In this document: piece by piece, positions 4,090 to 26,300 of the stretch
Position numbering within the stretch: the stretch's first letter is position 1
Layout of the letters: each line of letters begins with the position of its first letter
From: Opitutia bacterium KCR 482
GTDB taxonomy: Bacteria; Verrucomicrobiota; Verrucomicrobiia; Opitutales; Intestinicryptomonadaceae
Assembly: GCA_029269845.2 (NCBI GenBank)
Contig: CP149973.1
Span: forward strand, 2,040,001-2,072,000
DNA length: 32,000 nucleotides
Direction: 5' to 3'
Position numbers and translations under genes: made by a program
The notes under the pieces: model-generated
Databases searched by the model: none
Told to the model about the DNA's origin: nothing
Seen by the model: only the letters and a program-made list of their open reading frames with translations

Positions 4090-4097
4090 TTAAAACG

Positions 4098-4184
<87 letters not shown>

Positions 4185-19006: not shown

Positions 19007-19249
19007 TTAGAAAAGCGACGCCGCAAGGGCGCAGAGGTAGACCGCCGCGCCGAGAACGACCGCCGCAAGCCCCCAGAATTTCGCCTTTTCCGCCGCCATC
19101 ATCGCCTTTGCGGGGTTGTCGAGGGCGATGAACGTGTTTGCCCGCCCCGCGTAGTAGACGGCGGCGACCCCCGCGGGCGGCATGCAGAACACCGTCGCGA
19201 GAATGCCGAGGAGCATGTATTTTTTTACTTTGTCTTGCAGTTCTTCCAT
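19007..19249 (-). CDS. CD225/dispanin (IFITM-like) family protein
   Basis: From the ATG at 19249: MEELQDKVKKYMLLGILATVFCMPPAGVAAVYYAGRANTFIALDNPAKAMMAAEKAKFWGLAAVVLGAAVYL. This is the canonical CD225 layout. Confidence 0.78.
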   Translation of the reverse strand: MEELQDKVKKYMLLGILATVFCMPPAGVAAVYYAGRANTFIALDNPAKAMMAAEKAKFWGLAAVVLGAAVYLCALAASLF

Positions 19250-19254
19250 GTCTT

Positions 19255-19524
19255 TTAGTCGAGTGTGGACAACGCCAGTGCCGCGCAAATCCAGATGATA
19301 AGCCCTATCGCGTATACCGAAAGCCCCGCGAACAGCGAAACCAGAATCCAGTTTTTCGCCGCCTGAGAAGACTCCGCCGCCGCCCTGCGGTTGCCCGCAA
19401 GCAGAGCTGATTCCGTCTGCGACGAGTGGTACACCGCCATTATGCCGAACGGCAGGCAGCAGAACACCGTCGCCAAAATTGCGGGGACAAGCCTTGTCGG
19501 GATTTCGCCGTATTCGTTTTCCAT
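19255..19524 (-). CDS. CD225/dispanin (IFITM-like) family protein
   Basis: From the ATG at 19524: VPAILATVFCCLPFGIMAVYHSSQTESALLAGNRRAAAESSQAAKNWILVSLFAGL. It has the CC.P.GI.A..yS motif plus a second TM segment. Confidence 0.8.
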   Translation of the reverse strand: MENEYGEIPTRLVPAILATVFCCLPFGIMAVYHSSQTESALLAGNRRAAAESSQAAKNWILVSLFAGLSVYAIGLIIWICAALALSTLD

Positions 19525-19639
19525 ATATATACAGAAATAATATTTTGCGCTTTGTTCGGGCAAGCTTAAAAAAATCCGCATTGAAAATTGCGCGTTTCGC
19601 GCTTTGATTTTGCGGCTTCAAAAAAACGAAAAAAATTGC

Positions 19640-19668
19640 TTGACATTGTTTTTGCGGAGAAAAATATC
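19640..19668 (+). promoter_or_regulatory. putative sigma70-type promoter of the trp operon
   Basis: There is a perfect -35 TTGACA (19640-19645). The -10 candidates are weak: AAATAT, AATATC or ATATCG at 16-18 nt spacing. It lies about 25 nt upstream of the leader ORF. Confidence 0.4.
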
Positions 19669-19689
19669 GAAACTCGAAAATTCAAATTA

Positions 19690-19725
19690 ATGAAAAATTG
19701 GTGGTCCAGTCCGAAGGTCGCATAG
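19690..19725 (+). CDS. trpL: trp operon leader peptide MKNWWSSPKVA (tandem Trp codons)
   Basis: ATG AAA AAT TGG TGG TCC AGT CCG AAG GTC GCA TAG. It sits between the promoter-like element and an intrinsic terminator that ends 12 nt before trpE. Confidence 0.7.
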   Translation: MKNWWSSPKVA

Positions 19726-19758
19726 AGTTTAAAACGGTTTAAACTTTTGGCGGCCTTT
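19712..19758 (+). promoter_or_regulatory. candidate antiterminator helix of the trp attenuator
   Basis: GAAGGTCGC (19712-19720) can pair with GCGGCCTTT (19750-19758), giving 9 bp including 2 G-U. This sequesters the 5' arm of the terminator. The helix encloses an AT hairpin, GTTTAAA (19727-19733) with TTTAAAC (19738-19744). Confidence 0.45.
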
Positions 19759-19778
19759 TGTCTCGGCCGCTTTTTTTT
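19749..19778 (+). terminator. trp attenuator terminator
   Basis: GCGGCC (19750-19755) pairs with GGCCGC (19765-19770) around a 9-nt loop. T8 follows at 19771-19778, immediately upstream of the trpE ATG at 19791. Confidence 0.75.
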
Positions 19779-19790
19779 GCGCCAAACAAA

Positions 19791-21299
19791 ATGACACCAA
19801 CATTCGAACAATTCAAAAAGTACGCTTCGGACTCGAACGTAATCCCCGTCTACGCCGAATTGCTCGCCGACTTGGAAACGCCCGTTTCGGTTTTCGCCAA
19901 GCTCGACGGACTCGAAAACTGCTTTCTTTTCGAGAGCGCGGAAAACGTCGACAACTGGGGGCGTTATTCGTTCATAGGCTTCGCGCCCCGCGCGACGTTT
20001 TCGCTTGTCGGGAGGAAGTCGGTGCTTGCGTTCGCCGACGGACGCAAGGTTGAATCGACTTCCGAAGAGGGGCTTGCGCCGCTCGCGCCGCTTCGCGACT
20101 ATCTTGCCTCGCGCAAGCCCGCAAGGCTCGACACCCTTCCGCGCTTTTTCGGCGGGGCGGTCGGCTACTTCGGCTACGAGTGCGTGGGGCTTTTCGAAAA
20201 GCTCCCCGATCCCAAGGGCGAGCGCAAGTTCGACGACGCGTTCTTCGGCATCTACGACGACATCATAATTTTCGACAACCTCCGCCACACGGCGAAAATC
20301 GTCGCGTGCGCGAACATAGACGAATTCGACTCTCTCGAAGCCGCCTACCGCGACGCCTGCGCGAGGGTCGAAAAAATGTCCGAAATCTACAAGTCGCCGC
20401 GCCGCCGCCCGCTGACCGCGCAGAACATCGGCGAGATTCGCCTGAAATCGAACATGTCGCACGACGACTTCTGCGATATGGTAGAAAAGGCGAAAGAGTA
20501 TATAAAGCAGGGTGAAATCATACAGGTGGTGCCGTCGCAGCGCTTCTCGACCGACGCGCCCATCGACCCGATTGCCGCATACCGCGCCCTCAGGCTCATA
20601 AATCCGTCGCCCTACATGTTCTGCCTTAAACTCGGCGAAAAATACCTTGTCGGCTCGTCGCCCGAAACGCTTTTGCGCTTCTGCGACGGCAAGGCGCACG
20701 TCCGCCCGATTGCGGGCACGCGCCGCAGAGGCTCGGACGAAAACGAGGACATGCGCCTTGCCTCCGAATTGCTCTCGAACGAAAAGGAACGCGCCGAGCA
20801 CCTCATGCTCGTTGACTTGGGGCGCAACGACCTCTCGCGCTTCTGCGAGGCGGGCAGCGTTCAGGTGGGCGACTTCATGTCGGTCGAGCGGTACTCGCAC
20901 GTCATGCACCTGGTTTCCGACGTTTCGGGCGAAGTCAAAAAGGGCGTGGACGCGTTCGACGCGCTCGCGGCGGCTTTCCCAGCGGGCACTCTTTCGGGAG
21001 CGCCGAAAATCCGCGCAATGCAGATTATAAACGAGCTTGAACCCGAACGCCGCGGCTGCTACGGCGGGGCTGTCGGCTACATCGGCTACGACGGCAACAT
21101 GGACTTGGCGATTACAATCAGAACCCTCCAAATCTGCGACGGCATTACGTCGGTGCAGGCGGGCGCGGGCATTGTCTACGACTCCGTTCCCGAATTCGAG
21201 TACGAGGAAACCCGCATGAAAGCCCGCGCCGTGGCGAGGGCGATCGAAGCCGCGCACAATTTGGAATCGCTCGACGTCGCCGAGCTGGAAAGGAAATAG
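19791..21299 (+). CDS. trpE: anthranilate synthase component I
   Basis: FESAE, LINPSPYMF, IAGTRRRG, ELLSNEKERAEHLMLVDLGRNDL and GTLSGAPKIRAMQII are canonical TrpE motifs. The start is set at the ATG downstream of the terminator. Confidence 0.95.
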   Translation: MTPTFEQFKKYASDSNVIPVYAELLADLETPVSVFAKLDGLENCFLFESAENVDNWGRYSFIGFAPRATFSLVGRKSVLAFADGRKVESTSEEGLAPLAPLRDYLASRKPARLDTLPRFFGGAVGYFGYECVGLFEKLPDPKGERKFDDAFFGIYDDIIIFDNLRHTAKIVACANIDEFDSLEAAYRDACARVEKMSEIYKSPRRRPLTAQNIGEIRLKSNMSHDDFCDMVEKAKEYIKQGEIIQVVPSQRFSTDAPIDPIAAYRALRLINPSPYMFCLKLGEKYLVGSSPETLLRFCDGKAHVRPIAGTRRRGSDENEDMRLASELLSNEKERAEHLMLVDLGRNDLSRFCEAGSVQVGDFMSVERYSHVMHLVSDVSGEVKKGVDAFDALAAAFPAGTLSGAPKIRAMQIINELEPERRGCYGGAVGYIGYDGNMDLAITIRTLQICDGITSVQAGAGIVYDSVPEFEYEETRMKARAVARAIEAAHNLESLDVAELERK

Positions 21300-21302
21300 A
21301 AA

Positions 21303-21878
21303 ATGGTACTTCTTATTGACAATTACGATTCGTTCACATACAACCTGTCGCACTATTTGCAGACTCTCGGCGCGGACGTGCGCGTGGTGAGAAACGACGC
21401 GATGACCGCGGACGGGCTTTTCGGACTGGGAGCGTCGGCTGTGGTCGTCTCCCCCGGGCCGAGTTCGCCCAAAAACGCGGGTGTGTGCGTCGAGTTCATT
21501 CAGAAATTCGCGGGGCGCGTGCCGATGTTCGGCGTGTGCCTCGGCATGCAGTCGATAGGCTGCGCGTTCGGCGGCAAAATCGTCAGGGCGATGCGCACAA
21601 TGCACGGCAAGGTAAGCAAAATAGAGCACGACGGCAGGGGCTGCTTCAAGGGAATAGCGTCGCCGATGTCGGTGGTTCGCTACCATTCGCTCGCGGTCGA
21701 ACGCGCGACTCTTCCGCCGTGCCTCGAAGTTTCGGCTCAGGCTGAGGACGGCGAAATCATGGCTCTGCGCCACAGGGAGTATCTGATTGAGGGCGTGCAG
21801 TTCCACCCCGAATCGATTCTGACTTACGGCGGCAAGCGCATTCTCGCAAACTTTCTCGAAGAGGCCGACGCAAAATGA
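21303..21878 (+). CDS. trpG: anthranilate synthase component II (glutamine amidotransferase)
   Basis: LLIDNYDSFTYNL, SPGP, GVCLGMQ (catalytic Cys) and GVQFHPES are present. Confidence 0.95.
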   Translation: MVLLIDNYDSFTYNLSHYLQTLGADVRVVRNDAMTADGLFGLGASAVVVSPGPSSPKNAGVCVEFIQKFAGRVPMFGVCLGMQSIGCAFGGKIVRAMRTMHGKVSKIEHDGRGCFKGIASPMSVVRYHSLAVERATLPPCLEVSAQAEDGEIMALRHREYLIEGVQFHPESILTYGGKRILANFLEEADAK

Positions 21879-22903
21879 ACGCCGAATGCACACTCCGCGC
21901 CCTGCGCAAAATAGCCAACACCCGCGCGAACCTCTCCGCCGACGAGAGCCGCGCCGTGTTCGACGAAATCATGGGCGGCGAGGTTGACGACCGCACGCTT
22001 GCGGCGTTCCTTACCGCGCTCAAAATGAAGGGTGAAACCGTAGACGAAATCGTGGGGGCGGCGTCCGCCATGCGCAAGAGGGCGGCGTTTGTAAACGCGG
22101 GAGCGTACGCGCCGATTGACACCTGCGGCACGGGCGGCGACGGCATGGACACCTTCAACATATCCACGACCTCCGCGTTCATAGTGGCGGGCGCGGGAGT
22201 GGGAGTGGCAAAGCACGGCAACAGGGCGGCGACGAGCAAATGCGGCTCCGGCGACGTTCTCGCCGCGCTCGGCTTCAACCTCGACGTCCACCCCGAAGTG
22301 ATGGAGCACTGCTTGCAGGAAAACGGAATCGCGTTTCTTTTCGCGCCAAAAATGCACCCCGCAATGCGCTACGCCGCGCCCGTCCGCAAGGCTCTGGGCT
22401 TCCGCACGGCGTTCAATCTGCTCGGGCCGCTGGTGAATCCGGCGGGGGCGACGGGGCAGGTCGTGGGAGTGTTCGACGCCTCGATGACGGAGTTTGTCGC
22501 CGAGTGCCTCAAAAGGCTCGGCGGACGCCGCGCGTTCGTAATCCACGGCGACGACGGCTTGGACGAAATTTCGCCGTGCGCTCCCACAAAAGTCAGCGAG
22601 CTTAAAAACGGCTTCGTCAAGACCTACGAATTCAACCCTCTGAAATACATTCCGAACCTCGCCGACATGTCGGAGCTGCGCGGGGGCGACCCCGCCGAAA
22701 ACGCGGAAATCACGCGCGGCATTCTCGACGGGAAAATCGGCGGCGGCGCAAGGAACGCGTGCCTGCTCAACGCCGCGGCGGGAATCGTCGTCGGCGGAAA
22801 AACCGCCGACTTCGGCGAGGCCGTGGAGCTTGCAAAAAAATCTCTGGATTCTGGCGCGGCCCGCGCAAAGCTCGACGTCCTCGTAAAATTTTCAAGACAA
22901 TGA
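21875..22903 (+). CDS. trpD: anthranilate phosphoribosyltransferase
   Basis: AAFLTALKMKGET, DTCGTGGDG, NISTTSA, KHGNRA and NLLGPLVNPA are present. It has an ATGA overlap with trpG. Confidence 0.95.
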   Translation: MNAECTLRALRKIANTRANLSADESRAVFDEIMGGEVDDRTLAAFLTALKMKGETVDEIVGAASAMRKRAAFVNAGAYAPIDTCGTGGDGMDTFNISTTSAFIVAGAGVGVAKHGNRAATSKCGSGDVLAALGFNLDVHPEVMEHCLQENGIAFLFAPKMHPAMRYAAPVRKALGFRTAFNLLGPLVNPAGATGQVVGVFDASMTEFVAECLKRLGGRRAFVIHGDDGLDEISPCAPTKVSELKNGFVKTYEFNPLKYIPNLADMSELRGGDPAENAEITRGILDGKIGGGARNACLLNAAAGIVVGGKTADFGEAVELAKKSLDSGAARAKLDVLVKFSRQ

Positions 22904-23688
22904 GCGACATTCTCGAAACAATCCGCGACGCCTCCCGCGCCGATTTGGACGCGGCGAAAAAACGCCTTCCCTTTGCGGAGCTTCTTTCCGCCGCCGAAAA
23001 AACGCCCCGCGCGGCGTCGTTCAAAAACGCCCTGCGCGCGCGCGGCGGCAACCCCGCGGTAATCGCCGAAATGAAAAAGGCGTCGCCGTCGGCTGGGCTT
23101 ATCCGCGCCGACTTCGAGCCGTCGAAACTTTGTGTTGAGCTGGAGTCGGCTGGGGCGTCCGCGCTGTCGGTGCTTACCGAGCGCAACTATTTTCTAGGAA
23201 GCCTCGAATTTCTGCGCGACGCCGCAACCCGCGTGAAAATTCCGCTTTTGCGCAAGGATTTCATTTTCGACGAATACCAGATTGCCGAGGCGAAAGCCGC
23301 GGGGGCGTCCGCGGTGCTTCTCATCGCAAAAATGCTTAAAAAGCCCGACTTCAAGCGGCTCTTCGACTTCGCAAAATCGCTCTCGCTCGACGTTCTCGCC
23401 GAGGCGCACGACGAAGCGGAAATCGCCGCCGCCCTCGACTGCGGTGCGGACATCGTCGGCGTGAACTGCCGCAACCTGCGCACGTTCGGGCTTGATTTTT
23501 CGGTTTCTGAACGCCTGCTGAAAACGCTGCCCGATTGCGTCGTGAAAGTGGCGGAAAGCGGCGTGGACTCTCGCGAAACGCTGTTGCGCGCGCGCGGCGC
23601 GGGGGCGGACGCCGCACTTGTGGGAACCGCGCTGATGAAGGAGCAATCGCCGTCTGAGGCGTTGAAAAAACTTTTGGGGGCGCTGTGA
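22900..23688 (+). CDS. trpC: indole-3-glycerol phosphate synthase
   Basis: From the ATG at 22900 (ATGA overlap with the trpD stop): VIAEMKKASPS, LSVLTE, LRKDFI, LLI and GVNCRNL are present. Confidence 0.93.
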   Translation: MSDILETIRDASRADLDAAKKRLPFAELLSAAEKTPRAASFKNALRARGGNPAVIAEMKKASPSAGLIRADFEPSKLCVELESAGASALSVLTERNYFLGSLEFLRDAATRVKIPLLRKDFIFDEYQIAEAKAAGASAVLLIAKMLKKPDFKRLFDFAKSLSLDVLAEAHDEAEIAAALDCGADIVGVNCRNLRTFGLDFSVSERLLKTLPDCVVKVAESGVDSRETLLRARGAGADAALVGTALMKEQSPSEALKKLLGAL

Positions 23689-24293
23689 AAATCAAAATTT
23701 GCGGAGTTTCTAACGTCGGCGACGCCCTGAAAATTTCGGAGTCGGGCGCGGACTATGTCGGACTCATCTTCGCCGAAAAAAGTCCGAGGCTCGTTTCGGA
23801 GTCGGAAGCCCGCGCGATTGCGTCGGCGGGGCTTTCGGCAAAGCTCGTCGGCGTTTTCGTGGATTCGCCCGCCGAATTTGTCCGCCGCGCGGTCGGCGAA
23901 TACGGGCTTGCGGCGGTTCAGCTGCACGGTTCGGAAAACGCCGATTACATAAAGTCGCTGCGCGGCTGCGGCGCGGAAATATGGAGGGCGGTTTGGCTTT
24001 CCTCGCGCGGAGACGTCGCGGCGGCGGCGGAAATCGAGTGCGGAAAACTCGTCGTCGATTCCTCGCGCGGCGCGTCGCGCGGCGGCACGGGGCTTACCGC
24101 AAACTGGGATTTGGCGCGGGAGCTTGCGTCGGTTCGCGACGTATTTTTGGCGGGAGGAATCTCTTTCGCAAACGCCCGCGCCGCAATCGAACAGGTCGCC
24201 CCCTACGGACTCGACCTCAACAGCGCGGTTGAAATATCGCCCCGCAAAAAGGATACGGATTTAATTTCAAAATATTTAAAAACCATAAAATAA
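23685..24293 (+). CDS. trpF: phosphoribosylanthranilate isomerase
   Basis: KICGV..., ADYVGLIF, VQLHG and GGTG...W...LAGG are present. The GTG start overlaps the trpC TGA as GTGA. Confidence 0.9.
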   Translation: MKIKICGVSNVGDALKISESGADYVGLIFAEKSPRLVSESEARAIASAGLSAKLVGVFVDSPAEFVRRAVGEYGLAAVQLHGSENADYIKSLRGCGAEIWRAVWLSSRGDVAAAAEIECGKLVVDSSRGASRGGTGLTANWDLARELASVRDVFLAGGISFANARAAIEQVAPYGLDLNSAVEISPRKKDTDLISKYLKTIK

Positions 24294-25487
24294 ATGAATA
24301 CGGAAACGAAAAAAGGAAAGTTCGGAATCTACGGCGGACAGTACGTCGCCGAGACCCTCATGAGCGCGCTCAACGAGCTTGAACGCGAATTTTACAACGC
24401 CATCGCCGACCCCGCCTTCAACGCGGAATACGCCGCGCTTCTCAAAGACTACGTTGGCAGGCCGTCGCCGCTTTACTACGCCAAGCGGCTCACGGAATAC
24501 TGCGGCGGCGCGCGCATTTTTCTCAAACGCGAGGACTTGAACCATACGGGCGCGCACAAGGTAAACAACACAATCGGGCAGGTGCTTCTCGCCCGCAGAA
24601 TGGGCAAGCGCAGGCTCATCGCCGAAACGGGCGCGGGCATGCACGGCGTGGCGACGGCGACGGTTGCCGCGCTCTTCGGAATGCCATGCGAGGTCTTCAT
24701 GGGCGCGGAGGACGTAAGGCGTCAGGCGCAGAACGTGGGGCGCATGAAAATGCTCGGCGCAAAGCTCGTGGCGGTCGAGGTCGAACACGGAACGGCGACG
24801 CTAAAAGACGCCATGAACGAGGCTCTCCGCGAGTGGGTCGCGACCGTAGACGATACTTTCTACGTCATAGGCACGGCGGCCGGACCGCACCCGTACCCGA
24901 CGATGGTCAAGGAATTCCAGTCCGTCATCGGGCGCGAGACGAAGGCGCAGATGGCTGAAAAATTCGGGCGTCTGCCCACGCAGGTCGTGGCGTGCGTCGG
25001 CGGCGGAAGCAACGCAATCGGCATGTTCGCGCCGTTTATCGACGAGCCGTCGGTCGCGCTCTACGGAGCGGAGGCGGCGGGCGACGGCGTCGAAACGGGC
25101 AGGCACGCGGCGAGCCTCAGCGCGGGGACGGTCGGCGTCCTCCACGGAAACAAGACCTACCTTTTGCAGGACGAATTCGGGCAGATTCTCGACACGCACT
25201 CGGTGTCGGCGGGGCTTGACTACCCCGGAGTCGGTCCCGAACACTCGCATTTGAGGGACACGGGGCGCGCCCGCTACGTTCCGATTGACGACGAACAGGC
25301 GGTCGACGCGTTCCGGAAACTCTGCCGCTTGGAGGGAATTATCCCCGCGTTGGAGTCGTCGCACGCGGTGGCTCTTGCGATGCGGAACGCGCGTGAGCTT
25401 TCGCAGGACGACGTAATCGTCGTCTCCCTTTCCGGGCGCGGCGACAAGGACATGAATTCCGTAATGGAGTATCTTAACAGAAAATAG
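24294..25487 (+). CDS. trpB: tryptophan synthase beta chain
   Basis: [29 protein letters not shown] (PLP Lys), ETGAGMHG and GGGSNA are present. Confidence 0.97.
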
Positions 25488-25496
25488 GATTTAATA

Positions 25497-26300
25497 ATGA
25501 CTTCAAAGCTTTTTGAAAAACTCGCAAGGGAAAACAGGGCGGCGCTCGTCGTATTCGTAAGCTGCGGCGACCCGAATATCGAATTTTCCGAAAAATTGAT
25601 AGAACGCATCTGCGCGTCGGGCGCGGACATTATCGAACTCGGCGTGCCGTTCTCCGACCCCATGGCGGACGGCAAGACGATTCAGGCGGCGAGCCGCCGC
25701 GCCCTCAACGGCGGCGCGACGCTCGAAAAGGTTGTTGCTCTCGCAAAACGCCTGCGTTCGCGCGGGGTGGAAACGCCGTTCGTGATGTTCTCGTACTTCA
25801 ACCCGATTTTCAAGCTCGGCGTCGAAAAGACCGTAGACGAATGCGCCGCCGCGGGCATTGACTCTCTGCTTGTTGTGGACGTCCCGTTGGAGGAGGCCGA
25901 CGAGGTCGTCTCCGTGGCGTCGCCGAAAGGGATAGAGTTCATACCGCTCGCGGCTCCGACGTCGTCGCCCGACCGCATTCGGAAGATTTCGGAAAAGGGC
26001 GCGGGCTTCCTTTATTACGTAACTGTGGCGGGCGTAACGGGCGCGCGCGGGGCATTGCCAGAGGGCATTGCCGCAAGGCTCGCGGAAGTCCGCAAGGCGT
26101 CGGTTTTGCCGGTGGCGGCGGGCTTCGGAATCTCGAACCCCGAAATGGCGCACGCGGCGGCGGAGAGCGCGGACGCTGTCGTTGTGGGCAGCAAGTTCGT
26201 GGATTTGGCGTACAAGACATACGTCGAACGCGGCGAGGCGGCGGCGTTGGACGCAGCGGCGGACTTCGTCTCGTCGCTTGCGGCGCAGATGAAAAGATAG
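25497..26300 (+). CDS. trpA: tryptophan synthase alpha chain
   Basis: IELGVPFSDPMADGKTIQ, YFNPI, VVDVPLEE and GFGIS are present. Confidence 0.95.
   Translation: MTSKLFEKLARENRAALVVFVSCGDPNIEFSEKLIERICASGADIIELGVPFSDPMADGKTIQAASRRALNGGATLEKVVALAKRLRSRGVETPFVMFSYFNPIFKLGVEKTVDECAAAGIDSLLVVDVPLEEADEVVSVASPKGIEFIPLAAPTSSPDRIRKISEKGAGFLYYVTVAGVTGARGALPEGIAARLAEVRKASVLPVAAGFGISNPEMAHAAAESADAVVVGSKFVDLAYKTYVERGEAAALDAAADFVSSLAAQMKR

Follow-up and report, generated by a model that had tools for sequence, protein, structure and literature searches.

A compact, probable leader-peptide attenuator with nested helices upstream of the trp operon of gut Opitutales

The stretch of 32,000 nucleotides (nt) analysed here, hereafter the window, comes from Opitutia bacterium KCR 482 (contig CP149973.1, positions 2,040,001 to 2,072,000) and carries a leader of about 90 nt upstream of a seven-gene tryptophan (trp) operon. 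The leader encodes a peptide of 11 residues with two adjacent tryptophan (Trp) codons. With a probability of roughly 0.85, as judged from the sequence and from modelled folds, it is a ribosome-mediated (leader-peptide) transcription attenuator which senses charged tRNA-Trp and controls trpEGDCFBA. As to its inner design, the folds incline, at odds slightly better than even, towards a nested wiring of four RNA segments in which the Trp codons would serve as a second arm of the terminator. The parts of the element and its surroundings, in window coordinates, are the following.

19616..19639, forward strand: A-rich tract directly 5' of the -35-like hexamer, read from the sequence and A-rich in all relatives of the alignment; possibly UP-element-like.
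19640..19645, forward strand: TTGACA, the -35-like hexamer of the presumed trp promoter, read directly.
19690..19725, forward strand: trpL-like leader mini open reading frame (mini-ORF), ATG AAA AAT TGG TGG TCC AGT CCG AAG GTC GCA TAG, giving MKNWWSSPKVA plus TAG.
19699..19704, forward strand: tandem Trp codons TGG TGG, the proposed sensing site, invariant in 15/15 sequences.
19700..19706, forward strand: segment 1, GGUGGUC, which is formed by the Trp codons and pairs with segment 4 in ribosome-free minimum free energy (MFE) folds.
19713..19721, forward strand: segment 2, GAAGGUCGC (equal to GAAGGTCGC), the putative 5' strand of the antiterminator, over the last leader codons.
19724..19747, forward strand: AT-rich hairpin within the putative antiterminator, 10 base pairs (bp), loop ACGG, core 19727-33/19738-44.
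19749..19758, forward strand: segment 3, GGCGGCCUUU, comprising the 5' arm of the terminator (19749-55) and the 3' strand of the antiterminator (19750-58).
19756..19764, forward strand: terminator loop UUUUGUCUC, which pairs with codons 6-8 in the long hairpin described below.
19765..19771, forward strand: segment 4, GGCCGCU, the 3' arm of the terminator, which pairs with segment 3 or segment 1.
19771..19778, forward strand: T8 tract of the intrinsic terminator, read directly.
19791..26300, forward strand: trpE-trpG-trpD-trpC-trpF-trpB-trpA, the operon that would be regulated, from Pfam matches and gene calls.

An earlier reading of this DNA from its letters alone (the sequence-only reading) had proposed a trp attenuator at this place, and all of the parts that it named are found on reading the sequence again: the TTGACA hexamer, the mini-ORF with its TGG TGG, and the GC hairpin followed by T8, which ends 12 nt before the ATG of trpE at 19791. 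The terminator stem consists of GCGGCC (19750-55) with GGCCGC (19765-70) and is lengthened by G19749.U19771 to 7 bp with a loop of 9 nt; the hairpin is absent from the output of a simple terminator scan solely because loops were limited there to 8 nt. The AT hairpin between the mini-ORF and the GC hairpin is likewise present, with its core extending to 10 bp, and Pfam matches on the seven downstream open reading frames (ORFs) agree with the trpEGDCFBA order. The gene 5' of the trp operon runs divergently according to the gene calls, and hence the hairpin and T-tract are not the terminator of another gene. No further copy of the element occurs within the window.

Free of ribosomes, the leader is predicted to fold into one long imperfect hairpin, in the window as well as in all 14 relatives with which it was compared. 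The MFE of 19685-19790 (106 nt) is -39.2 kcal/mol, against -23.4 +/- 3.5 kcal/mol for dinucleotide shuffles (z = -4.5, with 0/200 shuffles as good); in the series of folds with ribosome masks, the free RNA of the window gives the same hairpin at -38.4 kcal/mol. From tip to base, the hairpin comprises the AT hairpin (19724-47), helix 2:3, a short middle helix between codons 6-7 and the terminator loop, and helix 1:4, which abuts the U-tract. Helix 2:3 joins GAAGGUCGC (19713-21) to GCGGCCUUU (19750-58); this is the pairing of GAAGGTCGC with GCGGCCTTT (19750-58) that the sequence-only reading had described, and its 9 bp with 2 G.U pairs are recovered on folding, while its 5' strand lies at 19713-19721 and not at 19712-19720, the one coordinate of that reading in need of correction. 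Helix 1:4 joins GGUGGUC (19700-06) to GGCCGCU (19765-71), and three of its pairs in the window are wobbles. In sequence, segments 1 and 2 are similar to segments 3 and 4, respectively, except that U stands where these have C. The alternative fold is the short terminator 3:4, in which 19749-55 pair with 19765-71 at -12.9 kcal/mol, and the outer extension of the long hairpin adds about -14 kcal/mol, as much as that short terminator. In the MFE fold, segment 1 is paired with segment 4 and not with segment 2, and a classical 1:2 protector or pause hairpin was not found: the pairing of GUGGUC with GGUCGC is weak, has three wobbles and is transient in the constrained folds.

The effect of a ribosome was modelled by masking an assumed footprint, which spanned 28 nt in the first folds of the window (P site -12 to +15) and 27 nt in the folds of the whole set of 15 sequences (from 12 nt before to 14 nt after the first nucleotide of the P site). 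In the window, a ribosome on the first or the second TGG leaves the 2:3 core at -23.1 or -21.0 kcal/mol, respectively, with the terminator absent, and with a ribosome on TAG the terminator forms, at -12.9 kcal/mol. Across the comparison set, placing the first Trp codon in the A site yields the 2:3 core with the AT hairpin (-20 to -26 kcal/mol) and an unpaired segment 4 in 15/15 sequences, and the second Trp codon yields the same in 13/15. Once the stop codon occupies the A site, the mask extends over segment 2 and the AT hairpin's 5' arm, and 15/15 sequences form the 3:4 terminator. Segment 4 is predicted to be unpaired only when a ribosome stands on the Trp codons; in the free RNA of all 15 sequences, its pairing reaches the U-tract. 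The proposal that the two helices exclude each other, with a stall at the Trp codons favouring the antiterminator and arrival at TAG the terminator, thus holds in the constrained folds. An upstream ORF with at least two cognate codons and an intrinsic terminator between that ORF and the first gene, both of which are looked for in an attenuator, are present here; under the assumed footprint, the antiterminator is also exclusive with the terminator in silico, free on a Trp stall and covered at the stop codon.

The favoured mechanism would work as follows. When Trp is plentiful, the ribosome would reach the stop codon, cover segment 2 and melt the AT hairpin; segments 3 and 4 would pair, and transcription would end at the U-tract 12 nt before trpE. 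When Trp is scarce, the ribosome would stall with UGG in the A site, covering segment 1 and leaving segment 2 free. The nested AT hairpin would nucleate helix 2:3, which would then capture segment 3, and with segment 4 left partnerless the RNA polymerase would read into trpE. Where the ribosome is absent or already released, helices 2:3 and 1:4 would zip into the long hairpin abutting the U-tract, and termination would again be expected. As segment 4 is paired to the U-tract with either partner in the free RNA, we infer that untranslated RNA also terminates, via the long hairpin. The exact timing of ribosome release would therefore not be required, and a ribosome halted at the Trp codons would suffice for readthrough. 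The AT hairpin presumably acts as a helix nucleator or as a pause hairpin.

The arrangement is conserved in the relatives that share a similar TrpE. Identical TrpE proteins are found on many human-gut metagenome contigs, and the closest genomic relatives by TrpE are uncultured gut Opitutales, 'Coraliomargarita sp. CAG:312', Candidatus Merdousia and Intestinicryptomonas porci. The same layout stands upstream of trpE in 10/10 species-level relatives with TrpE of at least 65% identity (L007-L016), and in the metagenome contigs L092, L094 and L095, whose TrpE is 58-63% identical to that of L015, the cultured Intestinicryptomonas porci Cla-KB-P66. The comparison set consisted of 15 distinct sequences of one gut Opitutales clade, namely the window and 14 relatives (10 GTDB species plus metagenome contigs), and the TrpE identity across the clade carrying the element is 58-93%. 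All four of the mini-ORF with two adjacent tryptophans (WW), the AT hairpin, the 7-bp GC terminator and the T-run are present in 15/15, so that the comparison with relatives proposed by the sequence-only reading returns the WW mini-ORF and every helix in each clade member recovered. The mean pairwise identity from TGGTGG to the end of the T-tract is 0.85; trpE, over its first 600 nt, has 0.69, and the promoter spacer, taken as the 45 nt that precede the leader start, has 0.55. Judged by these values, the leader core is under purifying selection and is more conserved than trpE itself. Three short motifs are invariant in 15/15, namely GGTCG in segment 2, GGCGGCCTTTT in segment 3 and TTTTGT in the terminator loop (19756-19761), the last even though the leader bases that face it in the long hairpin vary.

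The T-run measures 7-9 in all relatives and ends 10-12 nt before the ATG of trpE. As a separate observation, this spacer of 10-12 nt (19779-19790 in the window) starts with GCGC(C/T) or GGCC, except in L015 (GTGTCC) and L094 (GCGACC), and its GGCC is self-complementary to the terminator arms.

Pairing was counted by a script on motif-anchored segments, as the MAFFT alignment misplaces a one-base indel before GGCCGC and the lengths of the A/T-runs. The 7 pairs of helix 3:4 are canonical or wobble in 105/105 cells over the 15 sequences, the 8 pairs of the helix 2:3 core in 120/120, and the 6 pairs of helix 1:4 in 89/90. The variation within these three helices is one-sided and wobble-compatible (A-U to G.U, C-G to U.G, G.U to G-C). 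Two-sided changes occur only in the other two helices. The AT hairpin, present throughout, has variable loops, and its arms change length together (AAA/TTT to AAAAA/TTTTT); in L015, one of its A-T pairs is swapped to T-A. In the middle helix, CAG with CUG is replaced in L015 and L087 by CAAAGU with AUUUUG, and the terminator loop GTATTTT of these two co-varies with the leader CAAAGT. The compensatory changes which the sequence-only reading had proposed to look for in both main helices are thus absent from these in two-sided form. Such a pattern could follow from the nested wiring itself. Trp has no codon other than UGG, which leaves segment 1 no freedom to change; segment 4 has to pair with segment 1 as well as with segment 3, and segment 3 with segment 2 as well as with segment 4, and hence only wobble-neutral changes would survive, as is observed.

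The sequence-only reading had described a minimal two-helix variant, of which the competition of 2:3 with 3:4 stands; it appears incomplete, since the Trp codons also pair and the design would be nested and of four segments. A plain two-helix attenuator is nevertheless the most serious rival and is unlikely without being negligible. It would take the long hairpin as purely an antiterminator, with untranslated RNA reading through, an incidental 1:4 pairing, and termination that needs a ribosome on segment 2 while the terminator is being transcribed. Real competition between 2:3 and 3:4 in the folds would suit it, as would the three wobble pairs of helix 1:4 in the window; moreover, segments 1 and 4 are each fixed otherwise, by the Trp codons and by the terminator, and their complementarity could be a by-product. 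Against this, the pairing of the 3' arm GGCCGCU in the free RNA extends to the very edge of the U-tract in 15/15, which is the geometry of an intrinsic terminator whichever 5' partner this arm takes, and the outer extension is as stable as the short terminator. By our own calculation, the chance of a full 6/6 match in register between GGUGGN and a random 3' arm is about 1/64, and the co-variation of the middle helix in L015/L087 points the same way. The constraint of two partners per segment also explains why segments 2-4 are frozen despite the divergence of TrpE to 58-65% identity.

The leader peptides allow the coding and the RNA constraints to be told apart. They measure 7-13 residues in the clade and include MKNWWSSPKVA, MQNWWFSRKVA, MNNWWFSKGSHRV, MNNWWYSLEVA, MRNWWHSPKVA, MFNSWWTKSKVA, MNAWWFSRGVA, MNSWWRR, MKSWWRSLRS and similar ones, with ATG as the start codon in 14 and GTG in 1 of the 15. 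The gap from the start to TGGTGG is 6 or 9 nt in 15/15 and always in frame, one 3-nt insertion included, while the sequence of the gap varies. Further 3', the gap from TGGTGG to GGTCG is 10 or 11 nt in 15/15, even where the 10-nt form shifts the frame; that form changes the tail of the peptide (KVA to GSHRV, RR or SLRS), and the stop codon falls at four positions, in every variant at so short a distance that a ribosome terminating there would cover GGUCGC. The two U.G wobbles in the pairing of UGGUGG with segment 4 never become C-G, while the next, non-Trp position varies between U, C and A; that these wobbles are never improved beside a varying neighbour indicates a coding constraint on the Trp codons. 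Together, these patterns fit a 5' part that acts as a translated ORF with essential Trp codons and a 3' part that is constrained as RNA, and from them we infer that the mini-ORF is translated.

Several points weigh against the attenuator as proposed. Two-sided compensatory substitutions in the terminator and antiterminator are absent among the 15 sequences, and the support for these helices comes from invariance and wobble-compatible changes. In L011 and L094, which have the 10-nt spacing, the fold flips marginally, under the assumed footprint, to the terminator with the ribosome on the second Trp codon. The folds are purely thermodynamic and ignore kinetics, and the long hairpin, which contains mismatches, may terminate less well than a short one. 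The promoter is also incomplete: TTGACA is invariant in 11/11 genome sequences and lies 44-51 nt 5' of the leader start codon, but a consensus promoter scan found no sigma-70-type -35/-10 pair and no canonical -10, for which reason the trp promoter is assigned solely from the conserved hexamer. Lastly, no Shine-Dalgarno motif precedes the leader ATG, whose context is A-rich. This is typical of the genes here, as most genes in the window, trpE included, lack a recognisable Shine-Dalgarno motif and are A-rich before their ATG, which suggests that translation initiation in this organism is largely independent of such motifs. Hence, the missing motif is not evidence against translation of the leader, since most genes in the window likewise have only A-rich upstream contexts.

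Still, an ATG of this kind would suit a structure-only element, in which TGGTGG is a hairpin arm, the mini-ORF is untranslated and the leader is a constitutive or leaky terminator or a stability hairpin of the 5' untranslated region. The long hairpin is indeed very stable and conserved. This reading is very unlikely, because the start is in frame in 15/15, with a gap of 6-9 nt that varies in sequence and stays a multiple of 3, and because the U.G wobbles inside UGGUGG never turn into C-G while the adjacent non-Trp position does change. The start codon is unpaired in the folds and has the A-rich context of real genes here. In addition, the element fronts a Trp operon and carries the sole Trp codon twice, and no upstream gene requires a terminator at this place.

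The same peptides bear on a TnaC-like mechanism, in which the nascent peptide would sense free Trp, stall at the stop codon and keep segment 2 covered, leading to termination. The sign of regulation would be right and N-W-W-(F/Y/H/S)-S is fairly well conserved, but the idea is barely credible: the peptide has only 7-13 residues, and its C-terminal end (KVA, GSHRV, RR, SLRS) and the place of its stop codon change from species to species over an invariant RNA, as do its N-terminal residues. The fixed spacing of key residues to a C-terminal Pro-stop that marks the TnaC type is not seen in the relatives.

An alternative pair of terminator and antiterminator would also suit a trans-acting factor, such as a TRAP-like protein, uncharged tRNA-Trp (a T-box) or the ligand of a small-molecule riboswitch. 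This is highly improbable here. For TRAP, 9-11 (G/U)AG triplets spaced by 2-3 nt would be needed, and 19675-19790 holds only two (TAG 19723, GAG 19725). Rfam was searched with permissive filters in 19300-20000 (E <= 10) and at gathering score over the whole window; the former search matched neither the T-box (RF00230) nor any riboswitch family. The element of about 90 nt consists mostly of hairpins and has no room for an aptamer, and a factor of this kind would give no reason for the conserved in-frame WW ORF. The permissive scan likewise gave no match in 19300-20000 to Bacteroid-trp (RF01692) or to Trp_leader (RF00513), and the latter had none at gathering score in the whole window either. 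An Rfam match to ncS54 (E = 0.022) was set aside as being at chance level, since it reflects two hairpins and a U-run. The sole RNA gene of the window by Rfam or ARAGORN is a tRNA-Ser (anticodon CGA) at 4097-4184 on the reverse strand.

Beyond the attenuator itself, it is an even bet whether the element is a Trp attenuator of a separate class, so far uncatalogued, and the first case of leader-peptide attenuation to be described in Verrucomicrobiota. This reading takes in UGG UGG doubling as an alternative 5' arm of the terminator, termination as the default whether the leader is untranslated or fully translated, the frozen segments and a possible pause. In that case, the nested AT hairpin and the invariant loop may form a hairpin-stabilised pause which synchronises ribosome and polymerase. 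The consensus of the elemental pause is G-10/Y-1/G+1. It is fitted by G19750, U19759 and G19760, and the 3' end of the AT hairpin lies 12 nt upstream of U19759, a spacing that matches the geometry of a hairpin-stabilised pause; chance alone would produce such a match to the consensus roughly every 32 nt. A pause at U19759/G19760 is therefore a speculative lead. If real, it would allow a ribosome to be loaded, and the ribosome nearing the stop codon would release the paused polymerase.

The more distant relatives by TrpE (at most 57% identity; Kiritimatiellae, Lentisphaerae and Victivallales; L017-L026) lack the element. Other features stand upstream of trpE in some such relatives. For example, a palindrome TGTTTCTA-N4-TAGAAACA lies between TTGACA and the ATG of trpE, in the last 25-40 nt or so before the start, in L022, L023, L025, L026 and L097; its carriers are Lentisphaerae, Victivallales and Kiritimatiellae relatives, and degenerate forms occur in L017-L021. 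It looks like a repressor operator which replaces the leader or, in L017-L019, accompanies one. These last three encode W-containing leader peptides that all end in Pro-stop: MKNRFEQKNWRGWRRGP in L017 (~1341-1394), MRRFKDINGWYWRRLRAGP in L018 (~1321-1380) and MYGAGQAVWQWRWCGRGVP in L019 (~1308-1367). Strong terminators follow, no clear antiterminator was found by MFE folding, and the leaders may belong to a different attenuator class. In the Akkermansiaceae L033, L034 and L045, ORFs ending in EW(S/N/K)Q(A/T)EWAF-stop about 40-70 nt before trpE are probably the C-terminus of the upstream gene and not leader peptides.

Upstream of the leader in the window, positions 19590-19602 were flagged by the promoter and terminator scan as terminator-like on both strands. 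The divergent neighbourhood is a cluster of small membrane-protein genes (19007-19523 on the reverse strand of the window, and 1559-2733 in L001), with two CD225 genes, an unannotated ORF of 100 residues and a DUF2752 gene, and it is kept in the contigs sharing this TrpE.

If the attenuator is real, leader-peptide attenuation would extend to a phylum and a habitat, the Opitutales of the human and animal gut, that had no example in the searched literature or in Rfam. With a leader of 7-13 codons within about 90 nt, it is possibly among the smallest complete attenuators, and its small size would make it a convenient minimal system for following how ribosome position becomes a termination decision. 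It would also be an example of a single-codon amino acid locking the sequence of a regulatory RNA, and would flag Trp supply as a regulated variable in little-studied gut bacteria. The 15 sequences can be used as they stand to seed the alignment of a new RNA family.

Full-text literature searches returned no paper joining leader-peptide attenuation with Verrucomicrobia, and an earlier prediction may still exist. The nearest known systems are those of other lineages. Like the trpL of E. coli, the leader has a short ORF with tandem Trp codons upstream of trpE, a stall at WW would give the antiterminator and arrival at the stop codon the terminator, and untranslated RNA would terminate. It differs in its 11 codons against 14 and its element of about 90 nt against about 140, as well as in the nested long hairpin of 1:4 and 2:3 in place of 1:2 plus 3:4, without a stable 1:2 protector or pause hairpin. 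Furthermore, the Trp codons would offer the terminator a second possible arm, segments 2 and 3 are separated by an additional AT hairpin, the Shine-Dalgarno motif is missing, and the phylum is Verrucomicrobiota.

The Bacteroid-trp element (RF01692) was predicted by comparative genomics upstream of trpE or trpB in a phylum previously without a reported case; its authors call it 'a loosely conserved hairpin', accompanied by at least two UGG codons (Weinberg et al. 2010, PMC2864571). Both are predicted leader-peptide attenuators for Trp from lineages largely without Shine-Dalgarno motifs, but the element described here is tightly conserved and has a defined arrangement of four segments. Among the alpha-proteobacteria and actinobacteria, the trpL leaders of Sinorhizobium meliloti (trpL/rnTrpL, PMC6614838) and Streptomyces coelicolor are ribosome-dependent, with WW or WWW peptides upstream of trpE(G), and in S. 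meliloti the released leader RNA and peptide act in trans as well. Known or predicted TrpL peptides have 14-19 residues (PMC7755916); those of these two groups, within that range, accompany classical three-hairpin structures, whereas the peptides of the present clade have 7-13 residues.

In the TRAP system of Bacillus subtilis, attenuation needs 11 (G/U)AG repeats and the TRAP protein (PMC3064811); it shares with the present leader a mutually exclusive antiterminator and terminator, while 2 (G/U)AG triplets and a conserved WW ORF are found here instead. Chlamydia trachomatis belongs to the same PVC superphylum. Its TrpL, with 59 residues and no consecutive Trp codons, has been judged a poor and unvalidated attenuator, and its validated mechanism, the WWW motif of YtgCR, operates in trans via a repressor (PMC7755916). 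What it shares with the element described here is a Trp-codon-dependent translation coupled to transcription termination. Taken against all these systems, the class of mechanism is a textbook one; the architecture and the lineage are new, and the variant is uncatalogued.

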